This document shows positions 3,487 to 47,689 of a stretch of DNA of 64,000 bases, piece after piece (position 1 is the stretch's first letter; the number at the start of each line of letters is the position of its first letter). The notes below the pieces were generated by a model. The model ran no database searches and was not told where the DNA came from. It worked only from the letters and a program-made list of their open reading frames with translations. A program made the translations under genes and the position numbers. The stretch covers positions 144,998-208,997 of the forward strand of contig CAYHIS010000001.1 of the NCBI GenBank assembly GCA_964356785.1. The letters run 5' to 3'. The DNA is from an uncultured Rickettsiales bacterium. Lineage in GTDB: Bacteria > Pseudomonadota > Alphaproteobacteria > Rickettsiales > CANDYO01.

Positions 3487-3548
3487 TTCAGAATAGAGAT
3501 ATTATTTATAGCAGTATTTTATTTTAATACAATAAAATATTTTATATT

Positions 3549-3591
3549 GTTAGCGCAATTTAGAAATACCTGGTTTTTAAATTGCGCTAAC
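3549..3591. promoter_or_regulatory. Perfect 14-bp inverted repeat (gttagcgcaattta / taaattgcgctaac) with a 15-nt spacer in the divergent tRNA-Gln / PBP1A intergenic region
   Basis: Read directly from the sequence. It lies upstream of both flanking genes, so it does not look like a terminator for either. Possible operator or structural element. Confidence 0.4.
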
Positions 3592-3630
3592 AGGTTAATG
3601 GGATTGCTATAACATGGTTGATGGTATCGC

Positions 3631-6054
3631 TTGACGAAAAGCAAATATACTATAGAATCTTTTGGAATTAATCGAGAGGAAATTTTGCGCAATATTTTCA
3701 GGATACTCTTCTGGACTGGGTTTAATTTGGCAATTATCGCAGCAATAGCTGTAGCCTATTTGTTTTTTTTGAATTCTAAAGACTTACCAAGCTATAAGCA
3801 ATTAGAAGAATATCATCCTCCTATAGTTACTAGATTCTATTCAGCAAATGGAAAGCTGCTTGAGGAATATGCAAAAGAGCATCGTTTATTTTTACCCATA
3901 ACTGATATTCCGGAGTTAGTGAAAAATGCTTTCATTGCAGCAGAAGATAAAAATTTTTATGAACATCCAGGTATAGATTTCACAGGAATTCTTCGTGCAG
4001 CAATTAAAAATATTATATCTAGCAGCCAAGGTAAAAAATCCTTAGTTGGTGGATCCACCATTACCCAACAAGTTGTAAAAAACTTCCTTTTAAGCAATGA
4101 AAAATCTATAAATAGAAAAGTTAAAGAAGCGATATTATCTTTTAAAATTTCTAAAACATTATCTAAAGATAAAATACTAGAATTATACTTAAATGAAATA
4201 TATTTGGGGGCTAGGAGTTATGGCGTTGCGTCTGCGGCCCTAAATTATTTCAATAAGTCACTCAATGAATTAAACCTTGAAGAAGCGGCGTTCTTAGCGG
4301 CTCTCCCACAAGCCCCTAGTTATTATAATCCTTATAAAAAAAATGATCGCGCTCTTCATCGCCGTAATTGGGTTATAGAAAGGATGTATGATGAGGAATT
4401 TGTAACAAAAGAAGCTGCACTAGCAGCAATTGCGGAGCCTATTAAATTACAAAGAAGGGATAGAGAAGAAGTAGCTGAAGCAGATTTTTTTGCTGAAACT
4501 GTAAGACAAAATATTACTGAACTTTATGGTGACAAGGCTTTGTATGAATCTGGCCTGATGGTGCGTACAAGCTTAGATCCGAAGCTTCAAACTATTGGTA
4601 AAACAGCTCTGAGGAATGCTATTATCAATTACGATCATCGTCACGGATATAGAGGATCAGTTGCTAAAACCAACTTAAAAGACTGGCAAAATAAACTTAA
4701 AGAATTAAGTAGTAATGGATTTGATATTAATCCTTGGCAATATGCTGCTGTTGTAAATATTAATAATAGCGTAGTTAAGCTAGGGTTTAACAGTGAAAAA
4801 TTTGCAAATCTGAATCTGGAATGTAGTAAATGGACTGGAAAGAATTTGCTCAAAACTTTATCGCCTGGAGATATTATTGTTGTAAATAACCAAAATTGTT
4901 TAGAGCAAATCCCTAAAATTAACGGAGCTTTAGTTGCTATGGATCCGCACACTGGCAGAGTGCTAACTTTAGTTGGGGGTTATAGTTTTGATAATAGTAA
5001 ATTTAATCGCGCAACTCAAGCTTACCGCCAACCTGGTTCTTCATTTAAACCTTTTGTATATTTAGCTGCATTAGAAAATAATTTAACACCTTCTTCTATT
5101 TTTGATGACAGTCCTATAGAAATGGAACAGGGGCCTGGTCTCCCCGTATGGAAACCTAAGAATTTTTATAATGATTTCTTAGGACCTATCACCTTAAGAA
5201 GAGGGCTTGAACTATCACGTAACCCTATAACCGTTAGAATAGCACAAGATATAGGAATTCAGAAAGTTGTTGAAATTGCAAAGCGTTTTGGTATTAACCA
5301 TAATCCACAACCATATTATTCAATGGTTCTGGGTGCTATGGAAACCACCCTTCTTCGCCTTACAAATGCATATTCAATTATAGCTAATGGTGGACATAAA
5401 ATTACCCCAAGCTTTATAGATAAGATTCAAGATAGAAATGGTAAATTGATTTATAGTGGAGATAAAAGATCTTGTATAAATTGTTCATCAGAAATTCTAG
5501 TTCCGTTTATTCAAAATAATAATCAATTTGTTACAGATCCTAGATCAGCATATCAGCTAACATCCATACTTGAAGGAGTTGTCGCTCATACCAAAACCGC
5601 AGCTTCTATTAGAGCATTAGGTCGCACTATGGCTGGTAAAACAGGAACTAGTAATGAAGCGAAAGATGTTTGGTTTGTAGGATATACACCAGATTTAGTT
5701 GTGGGTGTATTTTTAGGTTTTGATGAACCTAAATCTTTAGGTAAGCATGAATCCGGAGCAAGAGTTGCGATGCCGGCTTTTGTTGAATTTATGAAAAATG
5801 CATTAGTAGATCAACAAGATAAACCATTTAAAATGCCGGGTGGGCTAAAATTAGTTAAAATTAACTATCTTACTGGTGAGCCAACAACAAGTAGAACTGA
5901 TTCTATTTATGAAGCATTCAAAAAATCAAACTATAAAGAAGCTGAGGATTTTGAGAAAGTTGCAATTGATACAATTCCAGAACCAAAAGAAAACGAAGCA
6001 GAAGATCTTAACCAATATGATCTAGAGGAAATTCAAGATGAAGGAATTTACTAA
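3631..6054 (+). CDS. mrcA: Penicillin-binding protein 1A (bifunctional transglycosylase/transpeptidase)
   Basis: N-terminal TM anchor. GT51 motifs EDKNFYEHPGID and GGSTITQQ. Transpeptidase motifs SSFKP (SxxK) and KTGTS. TTG start. Confidence 0.92.
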   Translation: MTKSKYTIESFGINREEILRNIFRILFWTGFNLAIIAAIAVAYLFFLNSKDLPSYKQLEEYHPPIVTRFYSANGKLLEEYAKEHRLFLPITDIPELVKNAFIAAEDKNFYEHPGIDFTGILRAAIKNIISSSQGKKSLVGGSTITQQVVKNFLLSNEKSINRKVKEAILSFKISKTLSKDKILELYLNEIYLGARSYGVASAALNYFNKSLNELNLEEAAFLAALPQAPSYYNPYKKNDRALHRRNWVIERMYDEEFVTKEAALAAIAEPIKLQRRDREEVAEADFFAETVRQNITELYGDKALYESGLMVRTSLDPKLQTIGKTALRNAIINYDHRHGYRGSVAKTNLKDWQNKLKELSSNGFDINPWQYAAVVNINNSVVKLGFNSEKFANLNLECSKWTGKNLLKTLSPGDIIVVNNQNCLEQIPKINGALVAMDPHTGRVLTLVGGYSFDNSKFNRATQAYRQPGSSFKPFVYLAALENNLTPSSIFDDSPIEMEQGPGLPVWKPKNFYNDFLGPITLRRGLELSRNPITVRIAQDIGIQKVVEIAKRFGINHNPQPYYSMVLGAMETTLLRLTNAYSIIANGGHKITPSFIDKIQDRNGKLIYSGDKRSCINCSSEILVPFIQNNNQFVTDPRSAYQLTSILEGVVAHTKTAASIRALGRTMAGKTGTSNEAKDVWFVGYTPDLVVGVFLGFDEPKSLGKHESGARVAMPAFVEFMKNALVDQQDKPFKMPGGLKLVKINYLTGEPTTSRTDSIYEAFKKSNYKEAEDFEKVAIDTIPEPKENEAEDLNQYDLEEIQDEGIY

Positions 6055-6058
6055 TTAC

Positions 6059-6157
6059 ACCTTTAATATTTCAAAAGTTGGAAGGAGCTAGGAACAAAGT
6101 GTATAAATTAATACATGAGCGACGAAGTGACGCTCCAAATCTTAAAATATTAAAGGT
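6059..6157 (+). repeat. Palindromic interspersed repeat, family R1, copy A (about 99 bp)
   Basis: Matches 19391-19489 through the core ttcaaaagttgg..aggag..catgagcgacgRagtgacgc.ccaaatctt. The terminal arms acctttaatatttcaaaagttgg / ccaaatcttaaaatattaaaggt are inverted repeats. Confidence 0.8.
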
Positions 6158-7328
6158 ATACATCAAGAAAGTTGCAATTTTTGGATCAACAGGGTCTATT
6201 GGCAATAATACAATCAATATAATAAAAAAATTTCCTGAGAAATATAAAGTTGAAATTCTAGTTGCTCATAATAATGTTGAAAGTTTAGCAAAGCAGGTTA
6301 AAGAACTTAGACCAAGTTACGCCTGCATTATAGATGAAACAAAACTAGAAACTTTAAAGATTTTACTAAAAGATGAAAATATAAAAATCTTTTCTGGAGT
6401 TAATGGTCTTTTAGAACTCGCTCAAATAAAACTAGATATAGTAATGATGGCGATTATGGGAGCAGCTGCTATATTACCAACAATCAGAGTAATTGAAGCT
6501 GGCAACAATATCGCTTTAGCTAACAAAGAATGCTTGGTTTGCGCCGGTAATATAATTACGAAGTTAGCTAAAAAGAATAATGTACAAATAATACCTGTTG
6601 ACTCAGAGCATAATGCTTTATTCCAGATTTTTGATTTTAAAAATCCAGAACTTATTAAAAATGTAACATTAACAGCTTCTGGTGGTCCGTTCAGAGATTT
6701 CTCACTAGAGCAAATGAAATCTGTAACTAAAGCACAGGCCTTAAAACACCCTAATTGGTCAATGGGCGCAAAAATTACTATAGATAGCGCAAGTCTTGTA
6801 AATAAATGTTTAGAGGTTATTGAAGCTTATCATCTTTTTCCGATAACTACTAACCAAATCAAGATAGTAATTCATCCAGAGTCTATTGTTCATGCTATGG
6901 CAACTTACAAAGATGGATCAGTTTTAGCAGCCTTAAGCAAACCCAATATGCAAATACCGATTTCTTTTGCATTATCTTACCCTGACAGAAATTATTTAGC
7001 AGAGTTTAATGAATTTGATTTAACAGAAATAAGTAAACTGCATTTTTATACTCCTGATAAAGAAAAATTTGGATCATTAAAATTATTAGACTCTGTACTT
7101 GCATCTATTGAGAGCAATTCTTCTTTAATTTTTAATGTTGCAAATGAGATAGCTGTTGAAGCTTTTTTAAATGATAAAATAAATTTTTCTCAAATTATTC
7201 AGGTAATTGATCATCTGCTTAATAAAATACCACTTAAAAAACTAGACAGTCTTGAAGAGACATTAGCTGAAATAGAAAAAGTTAGAATTGAAACACAAAA
7301 ATATATTAACCATCATTCATCAAGCTAA
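6078..7328 (+). CDS. dxr: 1-deoxy-D-xylulose-5-phosphate reductoisomerase (MEP pathway). The N-terminal roughly 20-27 codons are encoded by repeat R1-A; an alternative start is GTG at 6099.
   Basis: GSTGSIG NADPH-binding motif (at ORF residue 36 rather than the usual position around 8), plus the LANKE, DSEH and NWSMG motifs characteristic of Dxr. Confidence 0.9.
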   Translation: MEGARNKVYKLIHERRSDAPNLKILKVYIKKVAIFGSTGSIGNNTINIIKKFPEKYKVEILVAHNNVESLAKQVKELRPSYACIIDETKLETLKILLKDENIKIFSGVNGLLELAQIKLDIVMMAIMGAAAILPTIRVIEAGNNIALANKECLVCAGNIITKLAKKNNVQIIPVDSEHNALFQIFDFKNPELIKNVTLTASGGPFRDFSLEQMKSVTKAQALKHPNWSMGAKITIDSASLVNKCLEVIEAYHLFPITTNQIKIVIHPESIVHAMATYKDGSVLAALSKPNMQIPISFALSYPDRNYLAEFNEFDLTEISKLHFYTPDKEKFGSLKLLDSVLASIESNSSLIFNVANEIAVEAFLNDKINFSQIIQVIDHLLNKIPLKKLDSLEETLAEIEKVRIETQKYINHHSSS

Positions 7329-43678: not shown

Positions 43679-43999
43679 ATGGAATATTCAATTTTTACAA
43701 AACTGGCTTCAGAAGAAATTAGAACTATTTACGATATAGTAGAAAAGTCTTTATTAAATGGTGATTGCGACTTAATCAATGAAGTATTGTATATTTATAC
43801 AGATAAAGGAGACTATGTAATAAACCAACATGGGCCAACTTCTCAAATCTGGCTTTCCTCTCCTATAAGCAACGCAGGTTATTTTAACTATGATCCTAAG
43901 ACCAAAGAATGGTTGGATAAAAACAATAAGTCATTAAGAAAAAGATTAGAAGAGGATTTAATACCAAATCTATCCTATAACTGGGCATTTAGAATTTGA
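43679..43999 (+). CDS. cyaY: Frataxin-like iron donor CyaY; the last 12 codons and the stop lie inside repeat R2
   Basis: 106 aa with the pattern GDYVINQHGPTSQIWLSSPISNAGYFNYD typical of CyaY/frataxin. The tail IPNLSYNWAFRI is repeat-encoded. Confidence 0.8.
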   Translation: MEYSIFTKLASEEIRTIYDIVEKSLLNGDCDLINEVLYIYTDKGDYVINQHGPTSQIWLSSPISNAGYFNYDPKTKEWLDKNNKSLRKRLEEDLIPNLSYNWAFRI

Positions 44000-44122
44000 G
44001 ATTTGAGCATTATACGGAAATATAAAAAGCTGAGAATATCGGTTATATTTAATGCTTTTTTATTTTTGTAGAATGCCAAAAATCGAATTAGTAAATGCCC
44101 AGTTATAAGATAGATTTGGTAT
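43961..44122 (-). repeat. Palindromic interspersed repeat, family R2, full copy (about 162 bp), inverted relative to 32753-32915
   Basis: Arms ataccaaatctatcctataactgggcattta / taaatgcccagttataagatagatttggtat. Interior is the reverse complement of the copy at 32.8 kb with scattered substitutions. Sits between the convergent cyaY and nadA. Confidence 0.85.
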
Positions 44123-46297: not shown

Positions 46298-47689
46298 ATG
46301 AGCAATTTTGATGTAGCAGTAATAGGCGCCGGTCCTGGTGGTTATGTGGCGGCAATAAGAGCGGCGCAGTTGGGGTTAAAAGCAATAGTCATTGAAAAAC
46401 AACATCTAGGCGGCATTTGTTTGAATTGGGGATGCATCCCAACGAAAGCTTTGCTTAAATGCTCAGAAGTTCATCATCTTCTGCATAATTTAGACAATTA
46501 CGGATTTAGTGCTGATAATATAAAATTTGATTTTAAAAAAATCATTGAACGCTCAAGAAACGTGGCTAAACAATTAAATAATGGTATTTCTCATTTGCTT
46601 AAAAAGAATAAAGTTGAAGTAATAATGGGCGAAGGAAAGCTTATAAATAAAAATACTATTTCTGTTTCTCAAGAAGGAAAAATCACCAAAATCACAGCAA
46701 AAAATATAATATTAGCGACGGGCGCGAGAGCACGTATAATACCAGGGTTTGAATCAGATAATAAATTTATTTGGACTTATAAAGAAGCAATGACGCCTGA
46801 TTCCATGCCAAAATCAGTAATTATAGTCGGCTCAGGCGCAATTGGCGTAGAATTTTCTAGCTTTTACCATAGTATGGGCGCGGAAGTTACCTTAGTTGAA
46901 ATGTTTGATAGAATTTTACCAAGTGAAGATGAAGAGATAGCAGCTCTTGCACATAAATCCTTTGCTAAGCAAGGAATACAAATATACACTTCGGCGCAAA
47001 TAACTAAGTTCGCAAAAAACGCAAATAATGTTACAGCAACTATTACTACAAATGGCAAAGAGACTTTCGTTACTGCAGATAAAATAATTATGGCTGTAGG
47101 CATTGTTGCTAATGTAGAAAATATAGGCCTTGAAAATACAAAGGTAAAACTTGAAAATGGACGAATTAAAGTAAATGAATATTGCCTAACAGATGAAGCT
47201 AATATATATGCAATTGGTGACATTATCAACGGACCATGGCTTGCTCATAAAGCCAGCCATGAAGCAATTTTGGTTGCTGAGAAAATATCTGGAAAGAAAA
47301 AAACTCATCCTATAAAAAGAGAAAATATTCCTGGTTGCACTTATTCTTATCCACAAATTGCTAGCATTGGTATCACTGAAAAGCAGGCTAAAGAAAAGAA
47401 ACTTGATGTTAAAGTAGGTAGATTTCCATTTATGGCCAATGGAAAAGCAATTGCTTTAGGTGAAACAGATGGTTTAATTAAAACTATTTTTGATAGTAAA
47501 ACTGGCGAGTTGTTGGGCGCCCACATGATAGGAGCTGAAGTTACAGAAATGATTCAAGGCTTTGCAATCCATAAAACTATGGAAGGAACTGAAGAAGATT
47601 TAATCAATTGTATTTTTGCTCATCCAACACTTTCTGAAATGATGCATGAATCGGTGTTAAGCGCTTACGACAGAGCCATACATATATAA
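46298..47689 (+). CDS. lpdA: Dihydrolipoamide dehydrogenase, second paralog (probably the PDH-associated E3)
   Basis: GAGPGGY, CLNWGCIPTK redox disulfide and the HAHPTLSE motif. Clearly paralogous to 830-2233. Confidence 0.9.
   Translation: MSNFDVAVIGAGPGGYVAAIRAAQLGLKAIVIEKQHLGGICLNWGCIPTKALLKCSEVHHLLHNLDNYGFSADNIKFDFKKIIERSRNVAKQLNNGISHLLKKNKVEVIMGEGKLINKNTISVSQEGKITKITAKNIILATGARARIIPGFESDNKFIWTYKEAMTPDSMPKSVIIVGSGAIGVEFSSFYHSMGAEVTLVEMFDRILPSEDEEIAALAHKSFAKQGIQIYTSAQITKFAKNANNVTATITTNGKETFVTADKIIMAVGIVANVENIGLENTKVKLENGRIKVNEYCLTDEANIYAIGDIINGPWLAHKASHEAILVAEKISGKKKTHPIKRENIPGCTYSYPQIASIGITEKQAKEKKLDVKVGRFPFMANGKAIALGETDGLIKTIFDSKTGELLGAHMIGAEVTEMIQGFAIHKTMEGTEEDLINCIFAHPTLSEMMHESVLSAYDRAIHI

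Follow-up and report, generated by a model that had tools for sequence, protein, structure and literature searches.

A palindromic repeat at the mrcA/dxr junction of an uncultured Rickettsiales-like bacterium probably supplies the start codon of dxr

The Rickettsia palindromic elements (RPEs) RPE-1 to RPE-10 (Ogata et al. 2000, as summarised in PMC2229807 and PMC10969869) are repeats of 105-146 bp that form a long stem-loop, in some families with TA termini, and their reading frame is joined in frame to conserved housekeeping genes, which survive the fusion (PMC2229807, PMC10969869). Contributions to coding sequence are also described for the small transposable elements with inverted repeats known as MITEs: YPAL contributes part of the N-terminal signal peptide of YPO1552, and the 107-bp form of the Correia element has fusable open reading frames (ORFs) (PMC2229807). 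Here we describe R1, a palindromic repeat found in a 64-kb stretch of DNA (the window) from an uncultured Rickettsiales-like bacterium of the Hainich groundwater. One of its copies, copy A, occupies precisely the ancestral junction between the stop codon of mrcA, encoding a class A penicillin-binding protein (PBP), and the start codon of dxr, encoding 1-deoxy-D-xylulose-5-phosphate reductoisomerase (Dxr). The ancestral dxr ATG is gone, and the gene is probably translated from a GTG inside the element, with an AGGA of the element as Shine-Dalgarno sequence (SD).

Among described families R1 stands closest to the RPEs because of its size, long hairpin, TA termini, subfamilies, haphazard overlap with gene ends, empty sites and fusable frame. 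Like these, it is a dispersed palindrome of 105 nt that forms a long stem-loop with terminal inverted repeats (TIRs) and TA-bearing termini, and it is present in multiple copies, both intergenic and genic (two in the window, four more on contigs of the same population). Its frame is in frame with two conserved genes, dxr and xerD, with public gene calls (P0001 and P0124) including that frame, and the host lineage is Rickettsiales-like. It differs in that the host is not Rickettsia (XerD is ~46% identical to Rickettsia XerD) and has a dxr gene, and in that the genic copies are N-terminal replacements donating a start codon, not internal in-frame inserts. With the named RPE families the comparison is one by description: no catalogued model matched, and neither RPE consensus sequences nor Rickettsia chromosomes were among the searched sets. 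R1 also resembles the Neisseria Correia/NEMIS elements and other MITEs (ERIC, RUP, YPAL) in its length (~100-150 bp in that group), its TIRs and the TA at its ends, in lying at gene boundaries, where the hairpin is co-transcribed and may alter expression of the adjacent gene, and in having filled and empty orthologous sites (dxr empty in the relatives L003, L046 and L047, xerD empty in L049). What this group is known for, however, is promoters and sites for IHF and RNase III; the gift of an SD and a start codon to conserved, probably essential genes is not described in PMC2229807 or PMC10969869, and, unlike in a typical MITE, the interior core of R1 is more conserved across lineages than its termini. 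The REP and BIME sequences share with R1 the form of intergenic hairpins in operons with compensatory stem changes, but REPs are by definition extragenic, measure 20-40 nt and go together with RAYT transposases, whereas R1 measures 105 nt and is read as coding. We regard R1 as a new family within a known kind of element, and its consequence as noteworthy, not unprecedented. Coding palindromes of the RPE type also occur outside the genus Rickettsia, and here such a repeat has probably rebuilt the translation start of conserved, probably essential genes and not just inserted an internal loop.

Searches of catalogued families returned no counterpart. In the window only two tRNAs reach the Rfam gathering score, and around the element nothing scores better than E = 0.64, with spurious microRNA hairpin models. 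Pfam and NCBIfam, searched with all element frames at E up to 10, gave no RPE or other domain, the presence of RPE models in these sets being unconfirmed. A plasmid BLAST with R1 returned nothing meaningful, and in the literature search the core string occurred in no paper.

The history of the junction can be read from related genomes. In L003, L046 and L047, which like L049 are distant relatives of about 63-69% protein identity, the stop of mrcA directly adjoins or overlaps the ATG of dxr, without a spacer (TAGATG, TAATG and TAATG), and the covariance model of R1 described below detected no element at these mrcA/dxr loci. Because mrcA and dxr adjoin in this way in the relatives, the element is an insertion on the ancestral start. 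Congruently, L046 has GGAATTTACTAATG where the window has GGAATTTACTAAT and then the element, and BLAST joins position 3999 of L003 to window position 6053, and 4004 to 6162. The ancestral ATG position, 6159-6161, is now TAC, and 6162-6164 reads ATC, aligned with Ile2 of the orthologs. Copy A is present at dxr in three independent assemblies (the window, L001 and L002), where L001 differs by a single-nucleotide polymorphism (SNP) converting AGGAAC to AGGAGC, i.e. AGGAG at the SD. Three breakpoint models were considered, namely a 105-nt insert splitting TAATG between AT and G, a 106-nt insert with duplication of AT, and a 101-nt insert with duplication of TA; none is preferred. The proposal of the earlier note, a reading of the sequence that preceded this analysis, that an element has replaced the native dxr start is upheld by the junctions of the relatives, by the lost ATG and by the parallel at xerD.

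At the protein level the same boundary is visible. The closest relatives of the window Dxr are metagenomic, at most 69% identical and 384-389 residues long, and nearly all of 70 inspected homologs begin M-x(0-3)-K-K/T-[IV]-A-[IV]-F-G-S-T-G-S-I-G. The GSTGSIG motif, which had been said to lie typically around residue 8, is found at residue 8-12 in most orthologs. Several of these begin MIKK[IV]AIFG, matching Y-IKKVAIFG of the window from 6162 on. The conserved N-terminus consequently begins at 6159/6162 (M-I-K-K-[IV]-A-I-F-G); nearly all of the 70 homologs have no extension ahead of it, and an extension of the element type is absent from every close homolog among these 70 N-termini. The ORF 6078-7328 encodes a complete Dxr with all columns that are invariant across 62 aligned sequences. 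With translation from the GTG the element would encode residues 1-20, (M)YKLIHERRSDAPNLKILKVY, and the predicted repeat-encoded tail peptide is YKLIHERRSDAPNLK; the extension of about 20-27 residues that had been proposed agrees with 20 residues from GTG 6099 and 27 from TTG 6078. AlphaFold2, supplied with 62 aligned homologs, gave a mean predicted local distance difference test score (pLDDT) of 93.9, with residues 1-20 as low-confidence coil (pLDDT 44 and 65) ahead of an intact Dxr fold, the first strand of which starts at residue 23. On this model the tail is a disordered addition to the N-terminus, expected to leave the Rossmann domain unperturbed. DXR enzymes with N-terminal tags are active, and natural N-terminal extensions occur in the DXRs of plants. 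A word-index profile search with the tail peptide returned one partial protein and missed the Dxr of the window itself, hence it is uninformative. Separately, one Dxr ortholog of 436 residues (P0007, JGI sample 3300059473; 67% identical) has a 56-residue unrelated N-terminal extension that overlaps the upstream gene, and may represent another remodelled start or a mis-called one.

A parallel case is found at xerD. The R1 copy L042a, on a low-GC contig of the same groundwater sample, again shares orientation and frame with a gene, here one for XerD, at the 5' end of which it is located, reading MEGARSEVYKLIHERRSDAPNLEVSKLY-IDNFLEMLEAERAAS. The shared frame, ..QKLEGARxxVYKLIHERRSDAPNLxxLKxY, is continuous with dxr in the window and with xerD in L042/L048, and the presence of the same element-encoded peptide at the head of xerD indicates that the Dxr extension is repeat-derived, not ancestral. 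XerD models begin matching at residue 25-30 of the L042 product, XerD orthologs start M-x-x-I-[DE]-N-F-L-E-M-L, and the xerD of the relative L049 begins TTG GCA AAT TTA ATT GAA AAC TTC, without an element. The native ATG of L042 is situated 9 nt upstream of the palindrome (ATG ATA AAT); it is not in frame with the gene, and its reading ends at a TAG within the element. Removal of 103 nt restores MINYIDNFLEML and removal of 106 nt MINIDNFLEML, both lengths being found among orthologs. The public call P0124 (XerD; same assembly as L002) starts at the element GTG. The same R1 frame thus heads two housekeeping genes whose native starts the element has disabled, the native xerD ATG having been cut off and the element frame fused to the gene in its place. 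Neither of these repeat-derived N-termini, of Dxr and XerD in these metagenome-assembled genomes (MAGs), should be taken for a targeting signal or a new domain. The closest named XerD matches are a 'Rickettsiales bacterium' MAG (58%) and Rickettsia spp. (45-46%). The xerD that carries R1 also contains, in frame, a copy of a second palindromic family (RX, see below), which adds ~48 residues (..SKLASGREFEGGPEHRTGMYIEVHEDLGLEPTYKLPAEVEFRKKS..) as a classic RPE-style internal insertion.

R1 itself is represented in the window by two copies of one palindromic repeat, 105 nt each, with the ends TA[C/T]ACC...GGTAT[A/G] in both. Compared over 6052-6163 and 19384-19495 the copies share 79% identity, the longest direct repeat of the window in a repeat search. 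The stretches 6059-6157 and 19391-19489, previously proposed as the two copies of a 99-bp element, are present as described and align gap-free, but the boundaries were drawn slightly too tightly. Likewise, the 23-nt arms said to differ between copies while remaining complementary do show compensatory differences, but the contiguous outer helix spans 19 bp, followed by inner pairs. That the length is a multiple of three holds for 99 as for 105 nt, yet is irrelevant to an element at the start of a coding sequence and not inside it. Core patterns of 24 and 30 nt have exactly two matches each in the 64 kb, and none in 100 shuffles. A covariance model was built from six copies (the R1 model) and run on the window with filters off, where it recovered only copies A and B (127 and 125 bits; next match 20 bits); it gave no match on 744 kb of unrelated viral DNA used as a negative control, and no further copy in 19 kb of flank beyond the window ends. 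The fold energy is -26.8 kcal/mol (z = -4.7) for copy A and -37.6 (z = -5.4) for copy B, both of which outfold shuffled sequence on either strand. Over the six copies, five pairs of the outer stem have changed on both sides and 95.5% of cells are paired (RNAalifold consensus, pair counts), with a covariation score that was reached by none of 500 shuffles and that collapses as soon as partner columns are shifted. The changes include ACC/GGT, ATC/GAT and AAC/GTT, and ATACTT/AAGTAT versus ATATTT/AAATAT. The circumstance that the earlier note had named as fatal to its reading, two isolated loci lacking covariation, is therefore not what is found, as there are more copies and the arms covary. The 105 nt leave no room for a transposase and TIRs are present; R1 is best explained as a non-autonomous, RPE/MITE-like palindromic repeat whose termini bear TA, whose outer stem spans 19 bp and whose GC-rich core is conserved, and it probably owes its spread to transposition. 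Copy B is flanked by a surA-like stop (19504-19502) and a potC-like ATG (19367), both on the minus strand, and lies antisense to the transcription of both neighbours with no coding consequence, the potC-like gene retaining its own AAGAGG-N7-ATG.

Outside the window, a metagenome scan yielded four more loci (L041, L042, L045 and L044). The contigs L041, L042 and L045 originate from the Hainich H43 groundwater sample, as does the window, with 29-33% GC, 4-5x coverage and no overlap with the window, and L042 carries two copies (L042a and L042b), giving four extra low-GC copies. Contigs of those assemblies carry window genes at 100% protein identity, and the low-GC contigs are thus most simply other parts of the same population genome. 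Two subtypes can be distinguished, A (copy A, L041, L042a and L042b) and B (copy B and L045). All six low-GC copies begin TA[T/C]A, and five of them end TATA, with copy B ending TATG. An N-A-T follows the terminal TATA in all six (CAT in four; TAT and GAT in the others) without a mirror on the left side, and the AT at +5/+6 after the terminal GGT (window 6162-6163 and 19494-19495) is either part of the element or a target preference; at dxr and xerD the Ile codon of the junction takes its first two bases from this AT. The copies occupy intergenic, 5' untranslated region (UTR), gene-start and gene-end positions: L041 lies between convergent genes, L042b precedes a small gene by 46 nt and L045 precedes another by 29 nt, both counted from the end of the palindrome to the ATG, and the copies other than those at dxr and xerD have no special relation to starts. 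In L041 the last three codons of fmt (methionyl-tRNA formyltransferase) and its TAA stop are found inside an R1 arm (12592-12602), so that the family also remodels C-termini.

More distant relatives are the GC-47% alphaproteobacterial loci L024 (a MAG) and L044, which score 61 and 50 bits with the R1 model and retain the core AGGAGCGATGTGTAC-loop-GTACATGAGCGACGNAGTGACGC (~50 nt) inside long stems of unrelated, still pairing arms. L024 came from a scan of genome representatives, a collection without the genome of the window, in which the query ATGAGCGACGNAGTGACGC gave 32 loci; the other 31 were discarded as chance hits to GC-rich genomes, where the match is typically a gene start that reads MSDEVT. 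Scans of viral sequences gave chance matches only. The L024 relative is bracketed by 20-nt direct repeats, GGCTGATGGRTGCGTCACCA, at 5614-5633 and 5806-5825 (192 nt apart), and adjoins another inverted repeat, so that it looks like nested repeats in one spacer. A 70-residue partial ORF (P0123) ending ..PKILQKLEGARNEVYK runs into an R1-like copy on a 248-nt contig labelled Klebsiella pneumoniae, presumably a contaminant from a related organism.

Where then does translation of dxr begin? From the upstream stop TGA 6039 to the GSTGSIG motif, the dxr frame contains no ATG, GTG or TTG other than TTG 6078 and GTG 6099, both of them within the repeat, with none from its end to the motif, just as the earlier note had it. 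The AGGA it placed 5 nt upstream of the GTG is located at 6090-6093, with GGAAGGAG further upstream, and the only near-cognate codons after the repeat are ATC 6162 and ATT 6177. In the folded mRNA this AGGA has P(unpaired) = 0.81, while AAGG 6153-6156, which is the sole SD-like motif ahead of ATC 6162, has P(unpaired) = 0.00 in the 19-bp stem. GTG 6099 is favoured because the AGGA upstream of it is unpaired and the AAGG before the ATC fully paired. It is also the start of the public gene call P0001 (Dxr, 409 residues), and the SNP of L001 strengthens the SD upstream of it. An insertion at an ancestral TAATG or TAGATG junction has accordingly removed the dxr ATG, and the gene is most likely read from GTG 6099 with the element AGGA (AGGAG in the strain variant) as SD, which would produce a Dxr with a 20-residue disordered, repeat-encoded tail. 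When the region under a ribosome terminating at the mrcA stop was forced single-stranded, the outer stem dissolved and P(unpaired) of the AAGG went from 0.00 to 0.27; a terminating mrcA ribosome would thus melt the 5' arm, and some translational coupling has probably been retained. If correct, this is a natural example of a gene that survives the loss of its start codon via a pre-packaged SD and GTG in the right frame.

Initiation at the near-cognate ATC 6162, or 70S/30S reinitiation after mrcA, would instead yield a Dxr of ancestral length without a tail, the element being only intercistronic. The codon aligns with residue 2, or with residue 1 in MKK-type orthologs, it has AAGG 5 nt upstream, which the mrcA ribosome would partly expose, and if the former ATG was at 6162-6164 a single G-to-C change suffices, the insertion at first having left the start intact. 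AUC, however, initiates at ~1% or less of the AUG efficiency in E. coli, as measured across 64 codons. Moreover, the AAGG is sequestered in the 19-bp stem, a good SD and GTG stand in frame 63 nt upstream with no stop between, such that ribosomes from there read through 6162, and the corresponding ATA of the xerD junction is a conserved Ile, not a former start. On balance we hold this to be unlikely, though it is the main alternative.

An even less probable start is TTG 6078, with a 27-residue extension (MEGARNKVYKLIH...). No canonical start precedes it in the frame once the upstream stop is passed, it lies only 24 nt beyond the mrcA stop and is as such reachable by a reinitiating ribosome, and the xerD copy has the same TTG. 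Against this, no SD-like motif is found from -18 to -4, most of the region 6063-6083, which runs from 15 nt before the TTG to 5 nt after it and includes some of the 5' arm of the outer stem, is paired (mean P(unpaired) = 0.29), public gene callers took the GTG twice (dxr and xerD), and in the TTG reading the SNP of L001 becomes a nonsynonymous N-to-S change.

Several observations weigh against translation of dxr from the element GTG, or against the insertion as drawn here. GTG 6099 is itself in a 6-bp apical stem with P(unpaired) = 0.01, albeit a weak, A/U-rich one. SD 4-mers precede 33% of first-ATG starts in the window versus 9.6% of random positions; the genome makes use of SDs but they are not obligatory, and with only about one third of these starts preceded by one, an SD is not required. 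ATC 6162, in frame at the ancestral position, could allow low-level initiation or post-termination reinitiation. The same open frame occurs in the non-coding copy L041, and is for this reason a property of the A subtype, not a sign of selection at dxr. The chance of both genes falling in the single open frame is ~1/9, which makes their agreement suggestive, not strong. Each breakpoint model demands one extra substitution at dxr (G to C at 6161 or 6164), and the R1 ends are compatible with a TA target duplication that the AT-rich genome leaves unproven. Finally, an exhaustive phmmer search with the tail peptide over 1.84 billion representatives had no matches, i.e. no further carrier proteins.

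R1 could also primarily be a functional structured RNA or DNA site, such as an RNase III or stability hairpin or a protein-binding site, that is under selection, its position at dxr being regulatory and no accident of transposition. The ~50-nt core kept in L024 and L044 despite different, still pairing arms, the compensatory changes of the outer stem, and the orientation of five of the six copies with the nearest downstream or host transcript speak for such a role. Yet Rfam offers no matching model even at E = 10, copy B runs antisense to its two neighbours, the core of L042b is scrambled, the overlap with gene ends (fmt stop, xerD start, 5' UTRs) is haphazard, and orthologous junctions in the relatives have no element. 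Matched changes in the arms could in addition arise by co-evolution of the TIRs or hairpin repair, and we give this explanation little weight. A related and similarly doubtful idea is that the core, comprising a strong SD, an ATG or GTG and two small hairpins, is a portable translation-initiation or RNA-processing cassette that rescues disrupted genes and perhaps re-regulates them, either by RNase III or by an upstream ribosome that opens the hairpin. It would explain why R1 heads two housekeeping genes, and builds on the conservation of the core across differing GC while the arms turn over. Were this core-conserved, arm-variable architecture functional, R1 would represent an unusual class of mobile regulatory module. 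That the insertion, in removing the native ATG, inactivated dxr and left a decaying pseudogene is hardly credible, as the ORF is preserved at full length with 69% identity to orthologs, all columns invariant across 62 sequences are kept with a pLDDT of 93.9, and the dxr sequence is identical in three assemblies.

Two other roles were rejected. A promoter or terminator function was ruled out, since the element contains no terminator-like and no plus-strand promoter-like site. A small protein encoded by the core (SD + ATG, MCT..YMSD.VTH) was dismissed because the A subtype lacks the ATG, the ends of the ORF vary and the substitutions show no synonymous bias.

Table 1. Features of the mrcA/dxr junction and of the R1 copies in the window, with the corresponding junctions of the relatives
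Feature	Position	Strand	Remark
mrcA (class A PBP)	3631..6054	+	stop TAA 6052-6054 at conserved position (..DEGIY*), 1 nt before element
R1 copy A	6056..6160	+	whole spacer between mrcA stop and conserved dxr body; 127 bits
5' arm of outer helix, copy A	6056..6074	+	pairs with 6142-6160
TTG	6078..6080	+	alternative in-frame start inside element; without SD
purine tract GGAAGGAGCTAGGA	6080..6093	+	element-borne; AGGA 6090-6093 is the likely SD
GTG	6099..6101	+	most likely dxr start; inside element
dxr	6099..7328	+	as read from GTG
3' arm of outer helix, copy A	6142..6160	+	contains AAGG 6153-6156
ATC (Ile)	6162..6164	+	aligns with residue 2 of MIKK[IV]AIFG; only plausible non-canonical start outside palindrome
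R1 copy B	19388..19492	+	B subtype, same arms as L045; intergenic
Junction, window			..GGAATTTACTAAT, then element, then CATCAAGAAAGTT
Junction, L003			..GGTATTTATTAGATGATAAAAAAAATT
Junction, L046			..GGAATTTACTAATGGCTAGA
Junction, L047			..GGGATCTATTAATGACTAAA

Other repeats were encountered nearby. The second palindromic family, RX (~145 bp, TIR AGACTTCTTTCGAAACTC, central GTACATAGAAGTACATGAGGA), shares a GTAC..GTACATGAG centre with R1; it was seen at L042 600-760 (-) and 6360-6505 (-), at L048 359-475 and, in the relative, at L049 748-864, with no copy in the 64-kb window. A third repeat family is represented by a near-perfect 158-nt palindrome at window 43963-44120 (-74 kcal/mol), the arm of which, AATCCTCACCTATAATTGAACGTTTAGGATTTGAG.., recurs as half copies at 24441-24486, 32759-32804 and L042 1-84 (contig end). 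At window 24338-24409, just upstream of a gene starting at 24492, there is a GC-richer palindrome of 72 nt, TCGTCATCCTGA..GGATCCAGG..CCTGGATCC..TCAGGATGACAA, for which NCBIfam gave no match and which we take to resemble palindromes of the '..LRMT' type, common in Rickettsiales. A perfect 21-bp hairpin at 3547-3596 separates tRNA-Gln from the mrcA start (TTGTTAGCGCAATTTAGAAAT..ATTTTTAAATTGCGCTAACAG; a weak match of 20 bits with the R1 model) and could be a terminator or another small palindrome. Lastly, the stretches 841-933 and 46306-46398, as well as 1751-1803 and 47201-47253, are 72-77% identical and belong to two paralogous dihydrolipoyl-dehydrogenase-type genes, which is ordinary paralogy unrelated to the repeats.

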